12,248 nucleotides of DNA from the IMG/VR virus record IMGVR_UViG_2617270998_000003, positions 1 to 12,248 of that record; one strand, given 5' to 3'. This document shows positions 1 through 12,248 of this stretch, piece by piece. Position numbers and translations under genes: made by a program. Position 1 is the first letter of the stretch. Each line of letters opens with the position of its first letter. Source of the stretch: a virus (lineage: Duplodnaviria; Heunggongvirae; Uroviricota; Caudoviricetes). The notes below the pieces were generated by a model. It saw nothing but the letters and a program-made list of their open reading frames with translations, was not told the DNA's origin and did no database searches.

Positions 1-2
1 GG

Positions 3-710
3 CCTCATTCCGACTGGCACAGCGAGAACATGACCACAATGCGACACGCGCCGGGTGCAATCCGTCTGTGCTGGCACTGCGATAACCAGCTGCGCGATCA
101 GTTCACGGAACGGCTGGAATCAATGGCAACGGATAACTGTGCCCGCTGGGTGTTGTCTGTTGTGCGTCGGGATCTCGGTTTTGATGACAGTCACGTTGTG
201 ACAATGCCGGAACTGTGCTGGTGGCTGATTCGTAATGATCTGGCGGATGCCTTACCGGAAAGTGCAGCCCGTAAGGCACTGAGATTACCGAAGCCTGTTG
301 TGCCGTCTGTTACCCGGGAAAGTGACCTTGTGCCTTCGGTTCCTGCCACCAGCATCATCCAGGATAAGGCGAAAAAGGTGCTGGCGCTGAAAGTGGATCC
401 GGAGTCGCCGGAGTCTTTTATGTTACGCCCAAAACGTCGCCGCTGGGTTAATGAAAAGTACACGCGCTGGGTTAAGACACAGCCGTGTGCATGTTGTGGA
501 AAGCCCGCTGATGATCCCCACCACCTGATAGGTCACGGTCAGGGTGGAATGGGAACAAAAGCGCATGACCTTTTTGTGTTGCCTTTGTGCAGAAAGCATC
601 ACGACGAGCTGCATGCGGATACCGTGGCATTTGAAGAGAAGTATGGCTCCCAGCTGGAGCTGATATTTCGTTTTATCGATCGTGCGCTGGCAATTGGCGT
701 ACTGGCCTGA
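3..710 (+). CDS. DUF968-like phage protein with C-terminal HNH-like Cys/His cluster; 5' end probably lies outside the window
   Basis: Frame is open from nt 3 with no stop before the first ATG at 30 and no obvious SD at 30. C-terminal motif CACCGKPADDPHHLIGHG...CRKHHDELH. Position directly upstream of Q matches ydfU-like genes of lambdoid prophages (recalled, not searched). Confidence 0.6.
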   Translation, partial: PHSDWHSENMTTMRHAPGAIRLCWHCDNQLRDQFTERLESMATDNCARWVLSVVRRDLGFDDSHVVTMPELCWWLIRNDLADALPESAARKALRLPKPVVPSVTRESDLVPSVPATSIIQDKAKKVLALKVDPESPESFMLRPKRRRWVNEKYTRWVKTQPCACCGKPADDPHHLIGHGQGGMGTKAHDLFVLPLCRKHHDELHADTVAFEEKYGSQLELIFRFIDRALAIGVLA

Positions 711-727
711 TTTTGTGGAGAAAGGTG

Positions 728-1093
728 ATGCGTGATATTCAGATGATACTTGAACGTTGGGGAGCATGGGCTGCGAGTGATAACTCTGGTGTTGATTATT
801 CACCTATAGCTGCTGGGTTTAAGGGACTTCTTCCCTATACCAGCAAGAAACGCTTGGCTTGTTCGGATAGTGATGCATTAATTATTGAAGGTTGTCTTGC
901 TCGTCTAAAGCAAAAAAGACCTTATGAGCATTCGCTTCTTGTGGCACATTATTTATACAGAATATCCAAGCGTAAGATTGCAAAGGCGCGTGGAAAGGAT
1001 GAGAAATTGATACGTATAGAAATACAGCTAGCCGAAGGATTTATTGATGGCTGCCTTTCCATGCTAGATCTAACATTAGATTTGGACGTTTAA
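728..1093 (+). CDS. Q: Late-gene antitermination protein Q (Q82/QuuQ-like)
   Basis: ATG at 728 preceded by GGAG (717-720); the track's 713 start is a TTG. N-terminus MRDIQMILERWGAWAA...IAAGFKGL closely resembles E. coli prophage Q antiterminators as I recall them. Lies upstream of the lysis cassette. Confidence 0.8.
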   Translation: MRDIQMILERWGAWAASDNSGVDYSPIAAGFKGLLPYTSKKRLACSDSDALIIEGCLARLKQKRPYEHSLLVAHYLYRISKRKIAKARGKDEKLIRIEIQLAEGFIDGCLSMLDLTLDLDV

Positions 1094-1096
1094 TAA

Positions 1097-1128
1097 AATA
1101 CGCCCCATGCAGGGGCGTATTATTTACT
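1097..1128. terminator. Bidirectional intrinsic terminator between the convergent Q and KAP NTPase genes
   Basis: Perfect 10-bp stem AATACGCCCC (1097-1106) / GGGGCGTATT (1112-1121) with 5-nt loop ATGCA; T/A-rich on both sides (TTAATAAAA upstream, TATTTACT downstream). Sits between stop codons at 1091-1093 and 1124-1126. Confidence 0.65.
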
Positions 1129-2455
1129 GAATGAATGACATTTGATTGATATATTTTATCAATAACTCTCTGGGTGTAGTGCTCCAAAAATTTAGGTGGT
1201 CATAATCAGTATAAACTTTGGTGAACCTTTTTAGTTCTTCATCACTTTTAGGAGCAAATCGCTCATTAAGAGTAATACTGTCTTTAATTATTCCAAAGAA
1301 TACAATTGATATTTTAGGGATTTTCGAACTCATCTCATAAGAATAAGGTATCTCTTTTATTTTAAGCAGGTCTGCTAAATAAGATATAGATTCAGCGGTA
1401 ATTTCGTGTTTTAGTTTTTCCTTGTCACCAAAGCAATGTATGAAGACAGCTACGACAAAGATCATATTTATAAAACGATCACTACTGTTGTCTTCATTGT
1501 CGTTTAACAGTTGAAAAATGTTAAGATTGCGTGAAAATGTTTGTGTTTCACGTAATGATAAGTTGGTTCGTTGAATTAAATCACGGATAAAATAACCTGA
1601 TAAGCTATTGATTTCATTTAATGATCTTGTTTTTTCTACAAGGTAATTCCAATATATAACAGAGGCTTTACATACGTCGTGACCATTTATCAAACATGTA
1701 TCTGGAAGCGTGATGGTATATTTTATAAACTTGTCAAGATACTTTTGTGAGTTAATACTATAACCATAAATATGATTTATCGATGCTCTTAATTGTTCTG
1801 TGTTTGTAACTAAAATAAAAAAGACATTATTGATGTCAAAAATGTGTTTTATTGTTTCAATGACATTTGTTGAAAAACTCGGCTTACATCGGTCTAATTC
1901 ATCAATTATAATTACTATCTTTTGATTTTCTGAAATACTTTCGATGCAAGATTTAAGTGAATTTATGTTTTTCTCTGATTCCATATGGTCTTCAAGCAAA
2001 TTTTCAATAGTCCCATCTATTGCTGCATTGCTTGCTTTCTTCATCGCATCTTGGAATTCTTCGGCAACTTCACTAGCCTCCTGTCGTAAAAACCAACCTG
2101 CACCAGCTTTTAGTACAGTTTTTAAACCAAATCGAATTGCAGGAAGAGATCTCTTAATGAAGTGTTGTTTTTCTTCCTCAGGCAAAATGCTGGCAATTGC
2201 AGAGGTTATGAGAAGTAATGGAGATTCTGCATGATCCCCTTTAAAGGCATCAATATAAACAACTTTAGATTCGGGTTCTTGCTCAATAATGAGATTTTTC
2301 AGTTTGATACTAAATTCTGATTTCCCTGTTCCCCATGCGCCATCTATTACCAGTGGTGAAATGTCTGCCTCTGGTTTTAGCAACTTGATGATATTTTCAG
2401 CGATGTTTCTTCGTTGGAACTCGTCACGTTCAGTGAACGATAGTGTATCTAACAT
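1124..2455 (-). CDS. KAP-family P-loop NTPase (PifA-like), 443 aa, in an AT-rich insertion
   Basis: Walker A GAWGTGKS near residue 40; Walker B with the KAP-type hhhhDELDR signature (IVIIIDELDRCKP); no evident transmembrane helices. Only minus-strand gene in the window; about 32% GC versus over 50% in flanking phage genes. Confidence 0.8.
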   Translation of the reverse strand: MLDTLSFTERDEFQRRNIAENIIKLLKPEADISPLVIDGAWGTGKSEFSIKLKNLIIEQEPESKVVYIDAFKGDHAESPLLLITSAIASILPEEEKQHFIKRSLPAIRFGLKTVLKAGAGWFLRQEASEVAEEFQDAMKKASNAAIDGTIENLLEDHMESEKNINSLKSCIESISENQKIVIIIDELDRCKPSFSTNVIETIKHIFDINNVFFILVTNTEQLRASINHIYGYSINSQKYLDKFIKYTITLPDTCLINGHDVCKASVIYWNYLVEKTRSLNEINSLSGYFIRDLIQRTNLSLRETQTFSRNLNIFQLLNDNEDNSSDRFINMIFVVAVFIHCFGDKEKLKHEITAESISYLADLLKIKEIPYSYEMSSKIPKISIVFFGIIKDSITLNERFAPKSDEELKRFTKVYTDYDHLNFWSTTPRELLIKYINQMSFIQ

Positions 2456-2517
2456 AATATAAACCTGTTAACTCCTACAGTAAAAAACGAATAATACGAC
2501 TTTGGGATTAAAAATCA

Positions 2518-2546
2518 TTAACGCGGTCCGCAAAAATTCTTGTAAT
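2518..2546 (+). promoter_or_regulatory. Candidate late promoter (PR'-like) and Q-utilisation region
   Basis: TTAACG (2518-2523), 17-bp spacer, TGTAAT (2541-2546); located about 35 bp upstream of a strong terminator and about 200 bp upstream of the holin, as for lambda PR'/tR'. Hexamer match is imperfect. Confidence 0.4.
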
Positions 2547-2578
2547 CTGTTAAGAGTGGTTACTTCGCCACACAGCTT

Positions 2579-2610
2579 AAACCCGCCATTGAGCGGGTTT
2601 TGTCTTTTCT
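2579..2610 (+). terminator. Intrinsic terminator (tR'-like) ending a short late-leader transcript
   Basis: 8-bp stem AAACCCGC (2579-2586) / GCGGGTTT (2593-2600), 6-nt loop, then TTTTGTCTTTTCT. Confidence 0.6.
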
Positions 2611-2752
2611 GGGCCTTGGTATTCGTTGGGCTTGGTCTATCTAGTACTTATCCATTGGCTCGACTTCTTTTACGTTTCCGCTTCTGATTTGCGGTTCGTG
2701 GTACTCCCTCAATTTACACCTCCTGTATCGGCGAGGTGAGAGATAACTACAA

Positions 2753-3079
2753 ATGCCTCATAACCCAAATACCTGGCTGGAGTTGTTCCAGAGCTGGTGG
2801 CGTGGAGATACGCCTCTTGGCGCAGTGATTATGTCGATTGTTATGGCTGGATTGCGCATTGCCTATTTTGGCGGTGGTGGTGGGGGGAAGCGAAAAACGC
2901 TCGAGATTTTGCTCTGTGGTGCTCTGACGCTGACTTTTGCATCCGCTCTTGAGTATGTCGGATGGCCTAAATCACTTTCTGTTGCCATTGGTGGCGGTGT
3001 TGGGCTGATTGGTGTCGATGCAATTCGTGGGGCTGCAATGAGAGTGATCGGTAACAAGTTTGGTGGCTCTAAGGAGTAA
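2753..3079 (+). CDS. S: Holin, lambda S-like (class I, three predicted TMDs)
   Basis: 108 aa with hydrophobic segments and a charged C-terminus; resembles lambda S in architecture; immediately precedes the endolysin with stop 3077-3079 and the R SD AAGGAG at 3071-3076. Confidence 0.8.
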   Translation: MPHNPNTWLELFQSWWRGDTPLGAVIMSIVMAGLRIAYFGGGGGGKRKTLEILLCGALTLTFASALEYVGWPKSLSVAIGGGVGLIGVDAIRGAAMRVIGNKFGGSKE

Positions 3080-3082
3080 TTT

Positions 3083-3559
3083 ATGCAGATACTAAATTCC
3101 CAGCGTAAAGCTTTCCTGGATATGGTGGCATGGTCAGAAGGAACGGATAACGGGCGACAACCGACACATAATCACGGTTATGACGTTATTGTCGGTGGTG
3201 AACTCTTCACTGATTACTCCGACCACCCTCGCAAACTTGTCACGCTAAACCCAAAACTTAAATCAACGGCTGCTGGACGCTACCAGATTCTTTCCCGATG
3301 GTGGGATGCTTACCGTAAACAGCTTGGTCTGAAAGACTTCTCCCCCAAAAGCCAGGACGCAGTGGCATTGCAGCAGATTAAAGAGCGTGGCGCTTTACCG
3401 ATGATTGATCGCGGTGATATCCGTCAGGCTATCGATCGTTGCAGCAATATCTGGGCTTCACTGCCGGGTGCAGGTTACGGTCAGTATGAACATAAAATCG
3501 GTGACCTGATTGCCCGATTTAAAGAGGCTGGTGGGGGGGGAAATGAAGTTGAGTTATAA
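3083..3559 (+). CDS. R: Endolysin, lambda R-type lytic transglycosylase
   Basis: Near-identity over long stretches to lambda R as I recall it (QRKAFLDMVAWSEGTDNGRQ..., HGYDVIVGGELFTDYSDHPRKLVTLNPKLKST, RYQILSRWWDAYRKQLGLKDFSPKSQDAVALQQIKERGALPMIDRGDIRQAIDRCSNIWASLPGAGYGQ). SD AAGGAG 3071-3076. Confidence 0.95.
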   Translation: MQILNSQRKAFLDMVAWSEGTDNGRQPTHNHGYDVIVGGELFTDYSDHPRKLVTLNPKLKSTAAGRYQILSRWWDAYRKQLGLKDFSPKSQDAVALQQIKERGALPMIDRGDIRQAIDRCSNIWASLPGAGYGQYEHKIGDLIARFKEAGGGGNEVEL

Positions 3560-3977
3560 GCTGATTATCGCTGCTTTTTTCGTTACTGCCATTGGTTCTT
3601 TCATCTGGTCAGCCAGCTACTACTACAGCAAATATCAGTACGAAAAGAAACGTGCTGATGAGGCTGTACAAAATGCTGAATCAGCAACTGCCATTACCAA
3701 TAACGTCCTGCAATCAATGCAAATCGTCAATACAGTTTGGGAGGCTAACCAGCATGCAAAACAGCAGATCGCACTGGAGTCACAGAGAACCCAGGAAGAT
3801 ATCAAAGTGGCTGTTGCGGATGATGATTGTGCTTCACGTCCTGTGCCTGCTGCCGCTGCTGACCGGTTGCGAAAGTACGCGGACAGTTTACGTAACAGTA
3901 CCTCCAATTCCGCTTCCAGCTACTCTGACTTTGGAAACGCCAGTACCGCACATACCAGATACCCTGACCTATGGTGA
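3543..3977 (+). CDS. Rz: i-spanin (Rz-like), N-terminal TMD
   Basis: ATG at 3543 follows the G8 tract (3533-3540) and overlaps the 3' end of R; the track's 3510 start is a TTG inside R. N-terminal hydrophobic helix KLIIAAFFVTAIGSFIW and a charged, helical central region. C-terminal 25 aa are Ser-rich and atypical. Confidence 0.65.
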   Translation: MKLSYKLIIAAFFVTAIGSFIWSASYYYSKYQYEKKRADEAVQNAESATAITNNVLQSMQIVNTVWEANQHAKQQIALESQRTQEDIKVAVADDDCASRPVPAAAADRLRKYADSLRNSTSNSASSYSDFGNASTAHTRYPDLW

Positions 3978-4068
3978 CAGCCTGGAGTTGAATGTGAGTC
4001 TGTTGTCGGCGTTGGAACAGTGTAATTTTGATAAAGCGACAATAAAAAGTATTGATGCTAACAAGTAA
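3820..4068 (+). CDS. Rz1: o-spanin (Rz1-like) lipoprotein, +1 frame relative to Rz
   Basis: ATG at 3820 inside Rz; signal peptide MMIVLHVLCLLPLLTG|C with lipobox LTGC; Pro-rich mature region VPPIPLPATLTLETPVPHIP. Extends 91 nt past the Rz stop. Confidence 0.6.
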   Translation: MMIVLHVLCLLPLLTGCESTRTVYVTVPPIPLPATLTLETPVPHIPDTLTYGDSLELNVSLLSALEQCNFDKATIKSIDANK

Positions 4069-4130
4069 AAGAGCCTGCACCTTTATAGAGATGATTCCAT
4101 GTTAATATCGCTCCTTTAACGGGAGGCATT

Positions 4131-4622
4131 ATGATGGATTGGAATATGTGGTCTGCTATTGGGGCTTGTGGTTCGGCTATCGCGTCTTTTGGGGCGTTGT
4201 GTTATGCCCGTAAGGCGTTAAACACATGGAATAGACAGGAGCAATTTAAAGTAAAGTTAGAGTTTAAGAGAGCTTTACTTCAGTTGGAGGATGCCTTTGA
4301 GGCAATGCCTGATAATTGGAATTCCGTACAGTATAGAATAGCCAAAACATTTGCGTCTCAGCGGGGCAACGATATATATAATGGAGTTGTTGAGGCTGAA
4401 AAACAGCTGTTTTATAAAAAACAAAACCTTAATTTAGCGTACGGACATTCCGTACAGGCATGGGTTTTGTGTGAAGAACTGTTTAAAGACAATACTATTC
4501 ATGATGAATGGAAAGCTTTCAGAATTAGTTATGATAATTACATTCTGAATGGTGGGAACAAAAATGATTATTTGCCAATGATAAAAAATATATATTCAAA
4601 AATTCCTGTGTTTAATGGTTGA
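4131..4622 (+). CDS. Hypothetical protein, 163 aa, N-terminal hydrophobic helix; AT-rich insertion
   Basis: SD GGGAGG (4121-4126) then ATG 4131 (second ATG at 4134). N-terminus WSAIGACGSAIASFGALCYA is TM-like. About 35% GC. No family recognised. Confidence 0.6.
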   Translation: MMDWNMWSAIGACGSAIASFGALCYARKALNTWNRQEQFKVKLEFKRALLQLEDAFEAMPDNWNSVQYRIAKTFASQRGNDIYNGVVEAEKQLFYKKQNLNLAYGHSVQAWVLCEELFKDNTIHDEWKAFRISYDNYILNGGNKNDYLPMIKNIYSKIPVFNG

Positions 4623-4634
4623 TTTCTATACGAA

Positions 4635-4659
4635 ATGGAAAATATGTTCCATCTTTTTT
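4635..4659 (+). terminator. Weak candidate terminator after the hypothetical gene
   Basis: 6-bp stem ATGGAA (4635-4640) / TTCCAT (4647-4652), loop AATATG, then CTTTTTT (4653-4659). Stem is AT-rich and may be too weak. Confidence 0.3.
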
Positions 4660-4670
4660 AGGGAAATTAT

Positions 4671-5021
4671 ATGCCCCCACGAACCCCAAAAGCCTGCCGC
4701 ATTCGAGGCTGCCGCAATACCACCACGGACCCGTCAGGCTACTGCGAAAGCCACAAAAGCGAAGGCTGGAAGCAATACAAGCCAGGACAATCCCGTCATC
4801 AGCGCGGCTACGGTTCGAAATGGGATGCTATCCGTGAACGTGTACTGAAGCGTGACAAGGGCCTGTGTCAGTTATGTCTGCGTGCCGGTGTGGTGCGTGA
4901 GGCGAAAACCGTTGACCACATCATCCCTAAAGCGCATGGCGGCACTGATGCCGACAGTAATCTGCAGAGTCTGTGCTGGCCCTGCCATAAGGCGAAGACG
5001 GCCCGTGAACGGTTAAAGTGA
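4671..5021 (+). CDS. HNH endonuclease, terminase-associated (HK97 gp74-like)
   Basis: Cys/His motifs CRIRGC...C, CQLC, DHIIPKAHGGTDADSNLQSLCWPCH; located directly upstream of terminase small subunit, as in HK97-like phages. Confidence 0.9.
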   Translation: MPPRTPKACRIRGCRNTTTDPSGYCESHKSEGWKQYKPGQSRHQRGYGSKWDAIRERVLKRDKGLCQLCLRAGVVREAKTVDHIIPKAHGGTDADSNLQSLCWPCHKAKTARERLK

Positions 5022-5047
5022 TAATAATTCTCAACTGTCTGAGGGGA

Positions 5048-5107
5048 GGGGCGGGTCAAATCTCTGTGACCTGACGTCTTCCGGACTGCCCGCCCCATCG
5101 TTTTTTT
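5048..5107. other. GC-rich dyad-symmetric element plus T7 run; candidate cos/packaging region or terminator
   Basis: GGGGCGGG (5048-5055) and its exact reverse complement CCCGCCCC (5089-5096) separated by 33 nt, followed by ATCGTTTTTTT (5097-5107); sits between the HNH gene and terS. Confidence 0.35.
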
Positions 5108-5146
5108 ATACCCGCGAAAAATGAAATTTAACCAGGAGTGCCGCAT

Positions 5147-5641
5147 ATGGCTGGAACGGTGGGGCGTTCCGGGCGTCGCCCCAAGCCAACGGCGCGCAAG
5201 GCGCTGGCCGGAAACCCCGGCAAGCGAGCCCTGAATAAAGATGAACCTGTTTTTACGCCCATCAAAGGTGTTGAGCCACCGGAGTGGTTCGCTGAAGAAG
5301 ATCTCCCTCTCGCTACGATCATGTGGCAACTGACAACTAAAGAACTCTGCGGTCAGGGCCTGCTATGCGTGACTGACCTGGCGGTACTTGAGCGGTGGTG
5401 CGTGGCCTATGAGTTCTGGCGACGTGCCGTGAAAAATATTGCCATACAGGGCAACACCATCACCGGTGCAATGGGCGGCAGGGTCAAAAATCCGGAGCTG
5501 ACCGCCAAAAAAGAACAGGAGTCCGAGATGAGCAGCACGGGTGCAATGCTCGGACTCGACCCCAGCAGCCGCCAGCGTCTGATTGGCCTGGCGGGGCAGA
5601 AGAAAGCCACTAACCCGTTTCTGAAAATCATCGAGTCATGA
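5147..5641 (+). CDS. terS: Terminase small subunit (P27/HK97 gp1 family)
   Basis: AGGAG (5134-5138), 8-nt spacer, ATG 5147; the track's 5138 start is a GTG within the SD. Basic N-terminus, conserved position upstream of TerL with ATGA overlap at 5638-5641. Confidence 0.85.
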
Positions 5642-7371
5642 GCAGGAAATCTTACCCCAACGTAAATGCTGCCAATCAGTATGCCCGTGATGTCGTGCGC
5701 GGAAAGATTGTGGCCTGCCAGTTTGTGATTCAGGCCTGCCAGCGCCATCTTGATGACCTGATGGCGGAAAAAAGTAAGTCGTTTCGTTACCGCTTCGACA
5801 AGGACCTGGCTGAACGGGCCGCGAAATTTATTCAGCTGTTGCCACACACCAAGGGGGAGTGGGCATTCAAACGGATGCCCATCACGCTGGAGCCGTGGCA
5901 GCTCTTTGTGATCTGCTGCGCGTTTGGCTGGGTCAATAAAGGCTCCCGGCTGCGCCGCTTCCGGGAGGTGTATACCGAAATCCCCCGTAAGAACGGCAAA
6001 TCGGCAATCTCTGCCGGTGTTGCCCTGTATTGTTTTGCCTGTGATAACGAGTTCGGCGCGGAAGTGTATTCCGGTGCCACGACGGAGAAACAGGCATGGG
6101 AAGTCTTTCGTCCGGCACGACTGATGTGTAAACGCACACCCATGCTGACGGAAGCGTTCGGGATTGAGGTTAACGCCTCAAACATGAACCGTCCGGAGGA
6201 TGGTGCGCGGTTTGAACCGCTGATCGGTAACCCCGGTGATGGTTCATCACCCCACTGTGCCGTGGTGGATGAATATCACGAGCACGCCACCGATGCGCTT
6301 TACACCACGATGCTTACCGGGATGGGGGCGCGACGTCAGCCCCTGATGTGGGCTATCACCACCGCCGGGTACAACATTGAGGGGCCGTGCTACGACAAAC
6401 GGCGGGAAGTCATCGAGATGCTCAACGGTTCGGTACCCAACGATGAACTGTTCGGGATCATCTATACCGTTGATGAAGGTGACGACTGGACCGACCCGCA
6501 GGTGCTGGAAAAAGCCAATCCAAATATTGGCGTGTCGGTTTATCGCGAATTTTTGTTAAGTCAGCAACAGCGTGCGAAAAATAACGCCCGTCTGGCAAAC
6601 GTCTTTAAAACAAAGCACCTCAATATCTGGGTGTCGGCGCGTTCGGCGTATTTCAACCTGGTGAGCTGGCAGAGCTGCGAGGATAAATCACTGACCCTTG
6701 AGCAGTTCGAGGGGCAGCCGTGCATTCTGGCCTTTGACCTGGCGCGTAAGCTGGATATGAACAGCATGGCGCGACTTTATACCCGCGAGATTGACGGTAA
6801 AACGCATTACTACAGTGTGGCCCCGCGTTTCTGGGTACCGTATGACACGGTGTACAGCGTCGAGAAAAATGAAGATAGACGGACAGCCGAACGCTTTCAG
6901 AAATGGGTGGAAATGGGCGTCCTGACCGTTACCGATGGTGCAGAGGTGGATTATCGCTACATCCTCGAGGAGGCCAAAGCGGCGAACAAAATCAGCCCGG
7001 TCAGTGAGTCACCCATCGACCCCTTCGGGGCGACCGGGCTGTCACATGACCTTGCTGATGAAGATCTGAATCCCGTCACTATCGTCCAGAACTTCGCCAA
7101 TATGTCCGATCCGATGAAAGAGCTGGAAGCAGCGATTGAATCGGGACGCTTTCATCATGACGGCAATCCCATCATGACCTGGTGTATCGGCAATGTGGTC
7201 GGCAAAAACATGCCAGGTAACGATGATTTAGTGAAGCCCGTCAAGGAGCAGGCGGAAAACAAAATCGATGGTGCGGTTGCACTGATTATGACGATCGGTC
7301 GGGCAATGCTCAAAGAACCTGACGATTTCCTCTCATCTCTTGATCCGGACGATGATCTCTTAATTCTATGA
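5638..7371 (+). CDS. terL: Terminase large subunit (HK97 gp2-like)
   Basis: 577 aa; size, position and acidic nuclease-like motifs consistent with TerL; gene order TerS, TerL, portal. Confidence 0.9.
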
Positions 7372-7529
7372 AATCACTAATTGCTGATGTTATCGGGCTG
7401 GCTGGTTTTGGCCTGCTTACGTGCGGGGTTTACCTGCAGTTTGGTATGGCTCCGGCTCTGATTTTGTCCGGTGCTTTACTGCTGGTGGGCGCACTGGCTA
7501 TGGCCAGAAGGGGGACGCGTGCTGCTTGA
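7368..7529 (+). CDS. Possible small membrane protein (53 aa, two predicted TM helices) between TerL and portal
   Basis: ATG 7368 overlaps the TerL stop (ATGA); translation [53 protein letters not shown]; absent from the ORF track because it is under 60 aa. No SD; could be non-coding. Confidence 0.35.
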
Positions 7530-8745
7530 TGCTCTGTTCAGAAGTAAATCACTGGAGAATCCTTCCACCCCGATAACCGGTGATGCCGTTGATACTGATG
7601 GGCTGTTCCGGGCAGACGTTTATGTCAGTCCTGAGACTGCGATGAAACTGGCTGCGGTGTATTCCTGTATCTATGTCCTGTCTTCCAGCCTTGCCCAGAT
7701 GCCGTTGCATGTTATGCGCAGGCACAAGGGGAAGGTTGAACCCGCACGCGATCATCCGGCGTTTTATCTGGTTCATGATGAGCCCAATACCTGGCAAACC
7801 AGCTACAAATGGCGCGAACTGAAGCAACGTCACATCCTTGGCTGGGGGAATGGGTATACCTGGGTGAAACGTAATCGTCGCGGTGAAGTCATATCCCTGG
7901 ATTGCTGTATGCCGTGGGAAACGACGCTGATGAATACTGGTGGCCGATATACCTACGGTTTGTACAACGAATATGGGGCGTTTGCGATCAGTCCGGACGA
8001 TATGATCCACATCCGTGCGCTGGGTAATAATCAGAAGATGGGGCTGAGTCCGATTATGCAACATGCCGAAACAATAGGCATGGGGATGAGCGGTCAGAAG
8101 TACACAGAAAGCTTCTTCAGCGGTAATGCCCGTCCGGCGGGGATAGTATCCGTTAAAAGCGGACTCAATAAGGAAAGCTGGGGCTGGCTTAAAGATCAGT
8201 GGCAGAAGGCATCGCAGGCGTTACGCCGCCAGGAAAACAAAACCATGCTGCTGCCAGCCGATCTGGATTACAAGGCACTGACTGTGTCGCCAGTTGACGC
8301 TCAGATCATTGACATGATGAAGCTGAACCGTTCAATGATCGCCGGTATTTTCAATATTCCTGCGCACATGATTAATGACCTCGAAAAAGCCACCTTCTCC
8401 AATATTTCTGCGCAGGCGATTCAGTTTGTCCGCTACACGATGATGCCGTGGGTGACGAACTGGGAGCAGGAGCTTAACCGTCGCTTGTTTACCCGCGCTG
8501 AGTTAGCCGCCGGGTATTACGTCAGGTTCAATCTGACGGGGCTTTTACGCGGAACTCCGCAGGAGCGCGCGCAATTCTATCACTTCGCTATTACCGATGG
8601 ATGGATGAGCCGTAATGAGGCCCGCGCATTCGAGGATATGAATCCGGTTGAAGGGCTGGATGAGATGCTGGTAAGCGTGAACGCAGCTAACCCGGCAGGA
8701 GATTTTAAGCCCCCAAAAAACGATGAGGGAAAAACCAATGAATGA
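7519..8745 (+). CDS. Portal protein (HK97 family)
   Basis: Over 400 aa following TerL; start uncertain. GTG 7519 has GGGGGA 4 nt upstream. The track's ATG at 7471 gives a Trp-rich N-terminus [11 protein letters not shown] that looks like out-of-frame membrane-ORF sequence. Confidence 0.8.
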   Translation: MLLDALFRSKSLENPSTPITGDAVDTDGLFRADVYVSPETAMKLAAVYSCIYVLSSSLAQMPLHVMRRHKGKVEPARDHPAFYLVHDEPNTWQTSYKWRELKQRHILGWGNGYTWVKRNRRGEVISLDCCMPWETTLMNTGGRYTYGLYNEYGAFAISPDDMIHIRALGNNQKMGLSPIMQHAETIGMGMSGQKYTESFFSGNARPAGIVSVKSGLNKESWGWLKDQWQKASQALRRQENKTMLLPADLDYKALTVSPVDAQIIDMMKLNRSMIAGIFNIPAHMINDLEKATFSNISAQAIQFVRYTMMPWVTNWEQELNRRLFTRAELAAGYYVRFNLTGLLRGTPQERAQFYHFAITDGWMSRNEARAFEDMNPVEGLDEMLVSVNAANPAGDFKPPKNDEGKTNE

Positions 8746-9340
8746 CCGTGAAATCCGTTGTTACAGCGGTGAGGTGCGTGCTGAGAGGCATGACGATAAC
8801 CCGGCGCACATTATCGGTTATGGATCGGTGTTTGACTGTCGTTCTGAGCTGATATTCGGTTCATTCCGCGAAATCATCCGGCCCGGCGCTTTTGACGATG
8901 TGCTTGGTGATGATGTACGCGCACTGTTTAACCACGATCCTAATTTTATTCTTGGGCGTAGTGCAGCAGGCACGCTGAATCTTTCAGTTGATGAACGCGG
9001 ATTACGCTATGACATCCAGGCTCCTGAGACACAGACCATTCGTGATCTGGTGCTGGCCCCGATGCAACGTGGAGATATTAACCAGTCATCTTTCGCTTTC
9101 CGTGTCGCCCGTGACGGTGAGGAGTGGTATCAGGATGAGGACGGGGTTGTTATTCGCGAGATAACCCGCTTTTCCCGTCTGCTGGATGTCAGCCCTGTGA
9201 CATATCCTGCCTATCAGGAGGCTGACTCGGCTGTTCGCTCCATGAAAGCATGGCAGGAGGCGCGCAACAGCGGCGCGCTACAGAAAGCCATTAATCAACG
9301 TATGGCGCGTGAACGCGTCCTGACCCTTCTTAACGCGTAA
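8738..9340 (+). CDS. Prohead maturation protease (HK97 gp4-like, S78 family)
   Basis: Position between portal and major capsid; start ATG 8738 with GAGGGA 8 nt upstream (ATG 8723 also possible); overlaps the portal stop. Confidence 0.85.
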   Translation: MNDREIRCYSGEVRAERHDDNPAHIIGYGSVFDCRSELIFGSFREIIRPGAFDDVLGDDVRALFNHDPNFILGRSAAGTLNLSVDERGLRYDIQAPETQTIRDLVLAPMQRGDINQSSFAFRVARDGEEWYQDEDGVVIREITRFSRLLDVSPVTYPAYQEADSAVRSMKAWQEARNSGALQKAINQRMARERVLTLLNA

Positions 9341-9350
9341 AGGAAACATC

Positions 9351-10580
9351 ATGAAACTGCATGAACTGAAACAGAAACGTAATACTATCGCAACTGACAT
9401 GCGCGCCCTGAATGAAAAAATTGGTGATAACGCATGGACGGAAGAGCAGCGCACTGAGTGGAACAAAGCAAAATCCGAACTGGAAGCGCTTGATGAACGA
9501 ATTGCACGCGAAGAAGAACTGCGTCGTCAGGATCAGGCGTACATTGAAAGCAATGAGGAAGAGCAGCGTCAGAATCTTGATCCGGAAAACAATTCGCAAC
9601 AGGATGAGAAACGAGCTCAGGTTTTTGATAAGTGGATGCGTCACGGTGCCAGTGAGCTGACATCAGAAGAGCGAAAGGCGTTGCGTGAACTTCGTGCCCA
9701 GGGTGTAGCTCAGGATGAAAAGGGCGGATATACCGTACCAGAAACATTCCTGGCGAAAGTTGTTGAGAAGATGAAATCCTACGGTGGCATCGCCAGTGTG
9801 GCACAGATTCTGACCACTTCTGACGGTCGCACCATGGAGTGGGCAACAGCTGATGGTACTTCCGAAGTTGGTGTTCTGCTGGGCGAAAATGAAGAAGCCG
9901 GTGAAGAAGACACCGATTTCGGTATGGGAAGCCTTGGGGCGCTCAAAATGACATCGAAAATCATTCGTGTGTCTAATGAGTTGCTGCAGGACAGCGCGAT
10001 CGATATGGAAGCTTATCTTGCCCGTCGCATTGCTGAACGTATTGGTCGTGGTGAAGCCCGTTATCTGATTCAGGGGACTGGTGCGGGTACGCCTAAACAA
10101 CCCAAAGGGCTGGCAGCATCAGTGGCCGGCACAACACAGACTGCCGCGGCAAATGCGGTGAAGTGGCAGGAAATTCTGGCTCTGAAACACAGCATTGATC
10201 CTGCATATCGTCGCGGACCGAAATTCCGCCTGGCGTTTAACGATAATACGCTGAAACTGATCAGTGAGATGGAAGACGGTCAGGGACGCCCTTTATGGTT
10301 GCCGGATATTGTTGGTGTGGCACCTGCTTCAGTGTTGAATGTACCGTATGTCATTGATCAGGAAATTGATGATATCGGGGCGGGTAAAAAATTCATATTC
10401 TGTGGTGACTTTGATCGCTTCATTATCCGTCGTGTGCGATACATGATTCTTAAACGTCTGGTTGAGCGTTACGCGGAATATGATCAGACCGGTTTTCTGG
10501 CCTTCCATCGTTTTGACTGTATCCTGGAAGACACCTCTGCCATTAAAGCGCTGGTGGGGAAAGGTAGCGTTGGTGGTTGA
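9351..10580 (+). CDS. Major capsid protein (HK97 gp5-like) with N-terminal scaffold-like delta domain
   Basis: 409 aa; charged coiled-coil-like N-terminus of roughly 100 aa (EELRRQDQAYIESNEEEQRQ) followed by capsid-fold region; SD AAAGGA; follows the protease. Confidence 0.9.
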   Translation: MKLHELKQKRNTIATDMRALNEKIGDNAWTEEQRTEWNKAKSELEALDERIAREEELRRQDQAYIESNEEEQRQNLDPENNSQQDEKRAQVFDKWMRHGASELTSEERKALRELRAQGVAQDEKGGYTVPETFLAKVVEKMKSYGGIASVAQILTTSDGRTMEWATADGTSEVGVLLGENEEAGEEDTDFGMGSLGALKMTSKIIRVSNELLQDSAIDMEAYLARRIAERIGRGEARYLIQGTGAGTPKQPKGLAASVAGTTQTAAANAVKWQEILALKHSIDPAYRRGPKFRLAFNDNTLKLISEMEDGQGRPLWLPDIVGVAPASVLNVPYVIDQEIDDIGAGKKFIFCGDFDRFIIRRVRYMILKRLVERYAEYDQTGFLAFHRFDCILEDTSAIKALVGKGSVGG

Positions 10581-10600
10581 TTAGTCTTTTTACGTAATAC

Positions 10601-10627
10601 AGCACGCCGCGTAATGCGGTTTTTTTG
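10601..10627 (+). terminator. Candidate terminator after the major capsid gene
   Basis: Short stem CCGC (10607-10610) / GCGG (10616-10619), loop GTAAT, then T7 (10620-10626). Stem is weak. A stronger 8-bp hairpin GTGCCCGC/GCGGGCAC (10627-10648) follows, abutting the next SD. Confidence 0.35.
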
Positions 10628-10658
10628 TGCCCGCGTTCTGGCGGGCACAGGAGGTTTT

Positions 10659-10982
10659 ATGCTGTTAAAAATGGAAGAGATTAAGCTTCAGCTTCGTCTG
10701 GATGATGATTTCTCTGATGAAGATGAGTTGCTTGAACTACTTGGGAAGGCCGCTCAGAGTCGGACGGAAAACTTCCTTAACCGTACGTTGTATGCAACCG
10801 CAGATGACAGGCCTGCGGATGATCCTGATGGGCTTGTGATATCTGATGATGTGAAGCTGGCGCTTCTGCTACTTGTCAGCCATTTCTACGAAAACCGCTC
10901 AACGGTTACAGACGTTGAGAAAATGGAGTTGCCAATGAGTTTTAACTGGTTGGTTGCTCCTTATCGCCTTATACCACTATGA
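10659..10982 (+). CDS. Head-tail connector protein (gp6-like)
   Basis: AGGAGG (10649-10654) then ATG 10659; N-terminus MLLKMEEIKLQLRLDDDFSDEDELLELL typical of gp6-type connector proteins; the track's 10614 start lies within the hairpin. Confidence 0.75.
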   Translation: MLLKMEEIKLQLRLDDDFSDEDELLELLGKAAQSRTENFLNRTLYATADDRPADDPDGLVISDDVKLALLLLVSHFYENRSTVTDVEKMELPMSFNWLVAPYRLIPL

Positions 10983-11389
10983 AAATTCGTCAGGCGCAGA
11001 CCAGCGCAACCTACATTCTGCCGGACCCCGGCGAACTGAATAAACGCGTCCTGATCCGCCAGCGGGTGGATATGCCCGCGGATAACTTTGGCGTGGAGCC
11101 TCAATACCCGGTTGCGTTCCGGGCATGGGCGAAGGTTATCCAGACCAGTGCCACCACCTGGCAGGAAACTGCGCAGACCGGAGACGCCATCACCCATTAC
11201 ATCACCATTCGCTACCGCCGGGGGATCACTGCTGATTATGAGGTGGTCTGTGGTGACAGTGTGTACCGGGTGAAACGTCAGCGTGATCTGAACGGAGCGC
11301 GGCGCTTTCTGCTGCTGGAGTGTACGGAGCTGGGTGCCGAAGAACAAATGGGAGGACGCAGTGGATCAGACAGCATTTTTACACGTTGA
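10979..11389 (+). CDS. Head-tail adaptor / head closure protein
   Basis: ATG 10979 overlaps the upstream stop (ATGA); size and position match head-tail joining proteins of HK97-like phages. C-terminal extent uncertain because the next gene overlaps. Confidence 0.65.
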   Translation: MKIRQAQTSATYILPDPGELNKRVLIRQRVDMPADNFGVEPQYPVAFRAWAKVIQTSATTWQETAQTGDAITHYITIRYRRGITADYEVVCGDSVYRVKRQRDLNGARRFLLLECTELGAEEQMGGRSGSDSIFTR

Positions 11390-11885
11390 TTTCAAACAAC
11401 CGGAGGAGATGGAGTTTAACCGTGCCAGGCTCCGAAGGGCATTTGTTCAAATCGGGCGTGTCTATATGCGTGATGCCCGGCGGATGGTGATGCGACGTGG
11501 TCGGTCTGCTCCAGGTGAAAACCCCGGCTATCAGACCGGACGACTTGCGCGTTCTATAGGTTATTACGTCCCCCGTAAAAGCTCCCGTCGTTCTGGCCTG
11601 ATGGTCAGGATTTCCCCTAACCAGAAAAACGGGCAGGGTAACCGGCGTTTTCCTGAAGGATCTGCGTATTATCCGGCGTTTCTGTATTACGGTGTGCGTC
11701 ATGCCGCATATGGGATGAGCAAAAAGGATAAGCGCCAGAAAAAGCAGCATTCATCCCGCTGGCGGCTGGCACCACGTAATAACTTTATGGCTGATGTCAT
11801 CGACCAGCGTCGTTACTGGACACAAAAGTTACTGTCCCGTGAGTTACAGCGGTCATTACGTCCTGTAAGAAGGAAAAAAACATGA
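11361..11885 (+). CDS. HK97 gp10-family tail-component protein
   Basis: Family-like motifs GYQTGRLARSIGYYV and YYPAFLYYGVRH; likely start GTG 11361 with GGGAGG (11349-11354) 6 nt upstream; track's start 11334 is also a GTG. Confidence 0.65.
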   Translation: MDQTAFLHVDFKQPEEMEFNRARLRRAFVQIGRVYMRDARRMVMRRGRSAPGENPGYQTGRLARSIGYYVPRKSSRRSGLMVRISPNQKNGQGNRRFPEGSAYYPAFLYYGVRHAAYGMSKKDKRQKKQHSSRWRLAPRNNFMADVIDQRRYWTQKLLSRELQRSLRPVRRKKT

Positions 11886-12248
11886 AACTGACGCCTGTTA
11901 TTGCTGCACTGCGTGCCCGCTGCCCGTATTTTGAAAACCGGGTGGCAGGCGCGGCCCAGTTCAAAAATCTGCCGGAGGTCGGAAAGCTGAGACTCCCGGC
12001 GGCGTATGTGGTACCGGGGGATGACTCTCCGGGAGAAAACAAAAGCCAGACCGACTACTGGCAGGAGCTGAAAGAGGGCTTCTCCGTGGTTGTCATACTG
12101 AGTAACTGGCGTGATGAGCGCGGTCAGTTTGCCTCGTATGATGTGGTGGACGATGTCCGGCAGATGCTCTTTAAGGCTCTGCTGGGCTGGAACCCGGAAG
12201 CGTGCGGTAACCCGATTACCTATGACGGCGGCACGCTGCTGGATCTGA
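11882..12248 (+). CDS. Tail completion / neck protein, 3' end outside the window
   Basis: ATG 11882 overlaps the upstream stop (ATGA); frame open to the end of the window (MKLTPVIAALRARCPYFENRVAGAAQFKNLPEVGKLRLPAAYVVPGDD...). Confidence 0.6.
   Translation, partial: MKLTPVIAALRARCPYFENRVAGAAQFKNLPEVGKLRLPAAYVVPGDDSPGENKSQTDYWQELKEGFSVVVILSNWRDERGQFASYDVVDDVRQMLFKALLGWNPEACGNPITYDGGTLLDL

Follow-up and report, generated by a model that had tools for sequence, protein, structure and literature searches.

A KAP-family NTPase gene inserted between the Q antiterminator and the late promoter of a lambdoid Escherichia coli prophage as a candidate single-protein defence system

The late-region junction of a lambdoid prophage is contained in a stretch of 12,248 nucleotides (nt; positions 1 to 12,248 of the Caudoviricetes record IMGVR_UViG_2617270998_000003, called the window below), and it raises the question of why a single gene read on the minus strand lies between the gene for the Q antiterminator and the late promoter, and what its protein does. 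An earlier note, made from the sequence alone, had described this gene as the sole minus-strand gene, coding for a KAP-family P-loop nucleoside triphosphatase (NTPase) of 443 amino acids (aa) with the motifs GAWGTGKS and IVIIIDELDR, and had taken it for a single-gene anti-phage system. The description of the gene was confirmed: the KAP gene (1124–2455) is the only real minus-strand gene of the window, all other long open reading frames (ORFs) with family matches being on the plus strand, and gene calls for the same prophage elsewhere concur. Among deposited phages, megablast and blastn matched the window flanks to SfV/SfII/SfIV, cdtI and Stx phages but gave no match for the KAP gene itself. 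The head genes are of the HK97 type, and the host element is an SfV/HK97-like lambdoid E. coli prophage, in which the KAP gene is an accessory ('moron') gene. The most likely reading, to which we assign a probability of roughly 60%, is that it encodes a lysogen-expressed single-protein sensor NTPase that protects against superinfecting phages.

Judged by profile matches, the protein is a complete KAP-family P-loop NTPase and a member of family PDC-S20. Pfam KAP_NTPase (PF07693) matched aa 15–317 along profile positions 1–292 of 293 (E = 9.9e-71, 238.8 bits, cut-off 20), in line with the family assigned by the earlier note; since the KAP domain reaches aa 317, only about 125 residues are left unassigned, not the 200 or so without a motif that had been counted before. 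Full-length agreement was obtained with the PADLOC model PDLC04956 of PDC-S20 (positions 3–442 of 450, E = 2.5e-176, 585.5 bits), and three more PDC-S20 models matched, while the PADLOC models of PifA (1e-17) and QatA (E = 1.9e-13) matched partially, in the NTPase domain only. The protein belongs to PHROG 8614, which has no assigned function, and the exact sequence is held by NCBI as 'KAP family NTPase [Escherichia coli]' in a 90%-identity cluster of 2139 members, many of them from Salmonella, one identical sequence occurring on at least 1000 Salmonella contigs. The 145 phage defence candidates (PDCs), to which PDC-S20 belongs, were collected by 'guilt-by-embedding' in BREX, DISARM and type I restriction-modification (R-M) loci and entered PADLOC explicitly as untested; the same screen confirmed activity for six types of embedded candidate system (Payne et al., bioRxiv 10.1101/2024.01.29.577857). 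Because the family is already catalogued in this way, the defence hypothesis is not new and is on record as a prediction, not a finding, and no searchable paper names PDC-S20. To the PDC-S20 listing the present analysis adds the prophage positions (Q/pR' and cI-int), a conservation pattern resolved by domain, and comparisons of the fold. The single-gene defence of the earlier note thus gained a full-length PDC-S20 match and the defence-type slots described below, and lost its novelty; no anti-phage activity was found in the searchable literature.

Comparison with relatives that lack the gene shows it to be truly inserted between Q and the late-promoter block, because related phages join Q straight to a pR'-like block. 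In the Stx-type phage 1720a-02 (locus L002), BLAST aligned window positions 600–1053 with 2100–2553 and window positions 2510–2601 with 2608–2698, and in this insert-free phage about 10 nt separate the Q stop from the block ATTAGCGCGGTCCGCAAAAA...TAAGAGTGGT with its terminator hairpin. The insertion therefore maps to 1054–2509, not to 1097–2560 as previously proposed, and its GC content of 0.331 (0.329 for the KAP coding sequence, 0.273 at third codon positions) contrasts with 0.504 on its left side, 0.476 on its right side and 0.531 in the structural genes, which agrees with the AT-rich block in a phage of more than 50% GC that the earlier note had reported. As that note had also claimed, the cargo lies upstream of the late promoter, exactly between Q and its target promoter; this interval is an unusual cargo site, differing from the usual stx-type slot, which is downstream of pR'.

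Between the two convergent genes, a hairpin (1097–1121) with a 10-bp stem and the loop ATGCA begins 4 nt past the Q stop and ends 2 nt short of the KAP stop. A/T runs flank it on either side, and its folding energy is −20.6 kcal/mol on the plus and −18.3 kcal/mol on the minus strand. With its T-run partly absorbed into the stem, it escaped a simple terminator scan and was assessed by folding and by comparison with relatives instead. At the same position, the stems of Citrobacter (GCCCC/GGGGC) and Cronobacter (GGGCCC/GGGCCC) differ on both arms yet still pair, which is good evidence that the hairpin acts as a real two-way terminator, the 'perfect bidirectional terminator' of the earlier note. 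Read on the KAP strand, the loop (1107–1111) is TGCAT in the window and in a sister prophage (L004) and ATGCA in another (L003, 6014–6018 region) on an identical stem, so that the whole palindrome appears flipped between alleles. The Q proteins linked to KAP genes in E. coli, Salmonella, Citrobacter and Cronobacter have a common C-terminus (...GCLSML.L.LD.D).

To the right of the KAP gene lies a block with a −35 element TTAACG (2518–2523), a −10 element TGTAAT (2541–2546), a −10-like TAAGAG (2551–2556) and a hairpin (2579–2600), which by analogy with lambda would correspond to pR'/qut/tR'. This reading is supported by the conservation of positions 2518–2556 in E. coli, Citrobacter and Cronobacter amid diverged flanking DNA, and the same block is present in insert-free 1720a-02. 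Within it, the perfect palindrome GCGGTCCGC (2523–2531) and an invariant TAAGAGT just past the −10 element, both kept from E. coli to Cronobacter (L010, L017) and in 1720a-02, could be the element bound by this type of Q and its sigma-dependent pause signal. On the KAP strand, a −10 hexamer TATTAT (2496–2491) is combined with TTAATG as a poor −35 element at 19-nt spacing; this weak consensus match is well placed, leaving a leader of about 29 nt with AGGAG, and its −35 element overlaps that of pR' (about 2516–2523). In Citrobacter and Cronobacter a −10-like hexamer is likewise present 30–38 nt upstream of the KAP start codon. The best minus-strand matches of the scan (2484–2456 and 2471–2442) were rejected, as transcription from them would begin at or inside the start codon. 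Expression of the gene in the lysogen, independent of late transcription as the earlier note had it, is plausible from its orientation, the promoter on its strand being putative and only a weak match.

About 50 of 5426 complete E. coli genomes (~1%) carry the KAP gene, at about 96% DNA identity and always between Q and the holin gene; the pR' block is found in 806 E. coli genomes, which include these 50 or so. The same slot, convergent with Q and 27–32 nt from the Q stop, is occupied in Citrobacter (66% identity) and Cronobacter (44%). A second slot lies between cI and int in 186-like prophages of E. coli, Yersinia and Serratia. In phage 186, cI and int are on the lysogenic transcript, and the KAP copies between them would therefore, by analogy, be lysogen-expressed. 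For a P2-related Vibrionaceae phage, the cI-int position has been described as a defence hotspot (Rousset et al., PMC9122126). In the third slot, the gene stands co-oriented between hsdS and hsdR; a set of 22 diverse loci, drawn from Shewanella, Psychrobacter, Alteromonas, Aliidiomarina and others, included eight complete type I R-M operons of this kind and one cut by a contig end, and a further locus (L022) has the same arrangement, often with a YgjP-like gene alongside in such loci. The neighbours are wholly different among the Q/pR', cI-int and hsdS-hsdR contexts and include no conserved partner gene, so that the KAP gene stands alone.

Copies of the gene were also seen in decayed prophages. 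In Cronobacter sakazakii (L017, L018, L020), a DUF968-Q-KAP-holin-lysis remnant has host genes (alaE, nrd operon) and tail-tip fragments as its neighbours, and the intact KAP gene in it suggests retention after prophage decay. An intact Salmonella Typhimurium copy of 90% identity (L106, 8001–9332; AAYVPS010000009.1) is part of a phage remnant in which the genes run oafA ... tail-fibre assembly, holin, KAP, Q, DUF968 and an NEL/LRR effector. From this gene order we take the remnant to be Salmonella pathogenicity island 12 (SPI-12), and its KAP gene is probably STM2238 ('putative phage protein'), a locus tag mapped by inference only. The SPI-12 Q antiterminator, STM2239, is SsrB-regulated and reported to affect host fitness (PMC7380047). 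A Citrobacter-type prophage (L012, 11240–15335) carries, a few kb from Q-KAP, a colicin-like gene, a GIY-YIG protein and a SLATT plus reverse-transcriptase pair, the latter retron- or DRT-like; one prophage thus combines several genes for defence or competition.

In an alignment of 59 family members, the Walker A residues G39, W41, G42, T43, G44 and K45 and the Walker B residues D185, E186, L187, D188, R189 and C190 were invariant, as were several His, Arg and Lys residues. Relative to the window protein, identity averaged 59% for aa 1–263 and 22% for aa 318–443; between E. coli alleles, the ratio of non-synonymous to synonymous substitution rates (dN/dS) was 0.13 in the N-terminal and 0.32 in the C-terminal part, and 21–25 of the 27–30 amino-acid changes lay past residue 257. 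A conserved engine with a variable tail, as these alignments indicate, is the pattern expected of an immune sensor. The AlphaFold2 model was confident (mean predicted local distance difference test score, pLDDT, 81.7; predicted template modelling score, pTM, 0.77) with the exception of a helical insert at aa 113–154. The C-terminal structure prediction, for a region in which a sensor or an effector had been envisaged, returned a helical bundle, for which a sensor role is proposed, and no enzymatic effector fold; the C-terminus looks like a protein-binding module in the model, and no nuclease, protease, NADase or pore domain was recognisable in the protein. A PDB sequence search with the family profile gave nothing meaningful (best E = 0.5).

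The region between Walker A and Walker B (LKTVLKAGAGWFLRQ...AAIDGT; window 1889–2218, aa 80–189) reaches the family maximum of conservation (0.71), and its centre, aa 113–154, has the lowest AlphaFold confidence (pLDDT 41–54). Classical KAP NTPases have their transmembrane helices in this insert, which could here form a mobile interface or graze the membrane. No transmembrane segment was predicted, as the top 19-residue Kyte-Doolittle mean of 1.45 is below the usual 1.6 and the segment in question is a buried helix in the confident model, and a membrane-anchored KAP model was rejected on this hydropathy. Transmembrane helices are typical of the KAP family yet not universal, so that their lack does not exclude membership; PifA is likewise reported to have none.

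Among the systems with which the protein can be compared, no difference in kind was found to PDC-S20, with which it shares the full-length hidden Markov model match and the single-gene architecture, its relatives lying in type I R-M operons, the criterion that defines a PDC. PifA of plasmid F is the classic KAP defence, an abortive infection of T7 triggered by gp1.2 or gp10. The PifA-like function proposed by the earlier note was upheld for the NTPase domain, which has the same Walker A and DxLDR Walker B motifs (24% identity over aa 11–251 in BLASTP; 97% probability in hhalign, columns 14–258 against PifA 23–272 of 741), and failed beyond it, where nothing aligned; the PADLOC PifA model reached only 62 bits (13–255 of 720). 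PifA has 741 aa, about 470 further C-terminal residues being unaligned, and is encoded in a plasmid-borne pifC-pifA operon, in contrast to the 443-aa protein whose gene lies alone between Q and pR'. Because the alignment is confined to the NTPase domain, the window protein is not orthologous to PifA, and exclusion of T7 cannot be inferred as its phenotype.

The closest solved fold was that of RdrA of the RADAR system (PDB 8fnt, 8fnu, 8hr8), at 11–14% sequence identity; RdrA is a protein of about 800 aa with the partner deaminase RdrB, for which no gene is adjacent here. QatA (of QatABCD) and Tmn (YobI family) are also defence P-loop NTPases of or near the KAP group, but NCBIfam NF041923 scored 36.8 bits against a cut-off of 600, no qatBCD genes lie beside the window gene, and Tmn has two transmembrane helices inside its P-loop domain, whereas none is predicted here. 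Single-gene precedents are EF_KAP and three metagenomic KAP fusions, which depend on their Walker B motifs (PMC12632615 / PMC13552941), and Reve, a KAP NTPase from P4 hotspots (PMC13586616). These share with the window protein a KAP P-loop domain, an uncharacterised C-terminal region and a location on mobile elements, Reve being compared by description, and EF_KAP differs in its two N-terminal transmembrane helices, its 322-aa C-terminal region and its Firmicutes origin.

Defence of the lysogen is favoured by the family to which the protein belongs, by its three defence-type contexts, by the retention of the gene in remnants, by a sensor-like mode of evolution and by the precedent of validated KAP NTPases, and it starts from a family, an anatomy, an insertion, a conservation pattern and a set of contexts that are directly observed. 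From these we infer lysogen expression, oligomerisation, trigger recognition and an anti-phage outcome. In the proposed mechanism, the NTPase (aa 1–317, including an AAA+-type lid) would be the motor or switch, and the fast-evolving helical bundle (aa 318–443) would recognise a phage-made protein; recognition would lead to NTP-dependent assembly into a ring-like oligomer, as in RdrA, and this assembly would stop the infection, either by an abortive collapse as with PifA or by direct trapping or remodelling of the trigger. A more specific proposal, which we regard as speculative and unlikely, is that the Q-linked KAP NTPase is an effector-less defence of an undescribed mode, in one version a ring that directly traps or reshapes a phage protein or uses up NTPs, with pR'-coupled expression giving self-immunity during induction; a coupling of KAP expression to the prophage state is possible because the position back-to-back with pR' is fixed and the candidate −35 elements overlap.

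Several points weigh against a defence function. No experimental test of PDC-S20 was found in the searchable literature, where later papers describe PDCs as unvalidated or not all validated, and the association with defence contexts is the same kind of evidence as that which built the PDC list and is hence only partly independent. No close homologue was found in deposited phage genomes, true phage records reaching at most 28% identity in tblastn; one 45% match was a Salmonella houtenae contig within the phage collection. The promoter scan of the window gave no convincing sigma-70 promoter upstream of the KAP gene, and no effector was recognisable, the C-terminus matching generic helical bundles only in the fold comparison.

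These points leave room for other explanations, each of which has some support yet fits the full set of contexts less well than defence does. The protein could serve the prophage's own late control, as a partner of Q/pR' or a modulator of late transcription, induction or lysis timing: the gene is wedged into the Q-qut unit, its convergent spacing of 27–32 nt is kept from E. coli to Cronobacter despite 44% identity, DNA homology spans Q, KAP and pR' as one block (window 694–2572, 70% identity), and KAP stays with Q in remnants, including the Salmonella remnant of SPI-12-like order, the Q antiterminator of SPI-12 being the one with the reported fitness effect (PMC7380047). However, close relatives occur in 186-like prophages and type I R-M operons without any Q, phages with the same Q/pR' type function without a KAP gene, and the hypervariable C-terminus suits an arms race better than a fixed partner, so that we consider such a role improbable. 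The co-oriented hsdS-hsdR copies (the eight complete operons and the one cut by a contig end, plus L022) would alternatively fit an accessory of type I R-M systems that guards or helps Hsd complexes, much as PrrC is held latent by EcoprrI. Prophage copies would then need a host R-M system, and those of enterobacteria are without adjacent hsd genes; there is no partner gene common to the contexts, and genes embedded in R-M loci are frequently autonomous defences, six embedded candidate types having been confirmed active, which makes this explanation unlikely as well.

A selfish or neutral passenger, such as an addiction-like or silenced AT-rich gene, or a gene with another role in lysogenic conversion, would be in line with the outcome of the promoter scan and with the lack of any phenotype report in the searchable literature; H-NS typically silences AT-rich foreign DNA in enterobacteria. 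We hold this to be of low probability, given that the NTPase half is under purifying selection (dN/dS 0.13), that all 59 members keep the catalytic motifs unchanged, and that the gene is intact in decayed prophages and recorded as one identical sequence on at least 1000 Salmonella contigs.

Table 1. Coordinates of the KAP gene, its elements and its neighbours in the window.
Feature	Position	Strand	Basis or remark
DUF968/HNH protein	30–710	+	start beyond window edge
Q antiterminator	713–1093, likely true start ATG 728	+	Pfam Phage_antitermQ E 2.6e-51; left neighbour, convergent with KAP gene
Inserted low-GC block (Q 3' end, hairpin, KAP gene and its 5' region)	1054–2509		BLAST against phage 1720a-02
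Bidirectional terminator-like hairpin between Q stop and KAP stop	1097–1121		folding and relatives
KAP-family P-loop NTPase, coding sequence, 443 aa	1124–2455	−	Pfam, PADLOC PDC-S20, PHROG 8614
Hypervariable all-helical C-terminal region, aa 318–443; proposed sensor/specificity domain	1127–1504	−	
Walker B VIIIDELDR, aa 181–189 (IVIIIDELDR = aa 180–189)	1889–1915	−	family alignment
Walker A GAWGTGKS, aa 39–46	2318–2341	−	family alignment
KAP 5' region	2456–2517	−	Shine-Dalgarno-like AGGAG 2476–2472; candidate −10 TATTAT 2496–2491, poor −35
pR'/qut-like block	2518–2556	+	conserved motifs, E. coli to Cronobacter
tR'-like intrinsic terminator, 3' of late promoter	2579–2600	+	terminator scan; dG −14.1; kept in 1720a-02
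Holin S, first late gene, right-hand slot boundary	2753–3079	+	Pfam Phage_holin_3_1 E 7e-24
158-aa ORF at endolysin position	3083–3559	+	no Pfam match
Rz-like spanin gene, then small ORF	between 158-aa ORF and HNH endonuclease gene	+	

The remainder of the window follows the order of a lambdoid late region (Table 1), with genes for an HNH endonuclease, the small and large terminase subunits, portal, prohead protease, capsid and head completion on the plus strand to the right of the lysis region, and the Rfam scan of the whole window gave no match at gathering thresholds. An ORF (3592–4068, plus strand) that overlaps the Rz-like gene in another frame carries a lipobox-like LLTGC and fits an Rz1-type o-spanin partly embedded in Rz; a LysC/Rz1-like gene is annotated there in two other loci (L004, L109). 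A second low-GC ORF (4131–4622, plus strand, 37% GC, 163 aa, PHROG 6169) lies between the spanin and the HNH/terminase genes, had no Pfam or PADLOC match and belongs to a PHROG of unassigned function. In sister prophages this slot holds a DUF6236 protein (L003), a minus-strand ClpP-like protease with a hypothetical gene (L004), an 83-aa ORF (L109) or the same ORF beside an IS66 insertion (L108), and it looks like a second variable cargo site.

If a defence function were shown, PDC-S20 would change from an untested catalogue entry into a real system. The question of how KAP NTPases stop phages dates back to PifA, and a protein that is small (443 aa), soluble and without a recognisable effector would be a convenient model for addressing it. 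The family is common, this allele group being carried by about 1% of complete E. coli genomes and one identical sequence being present on at least 1000 Salmonella contigs, and the gene could thus affect the host range of phages used in therapy.

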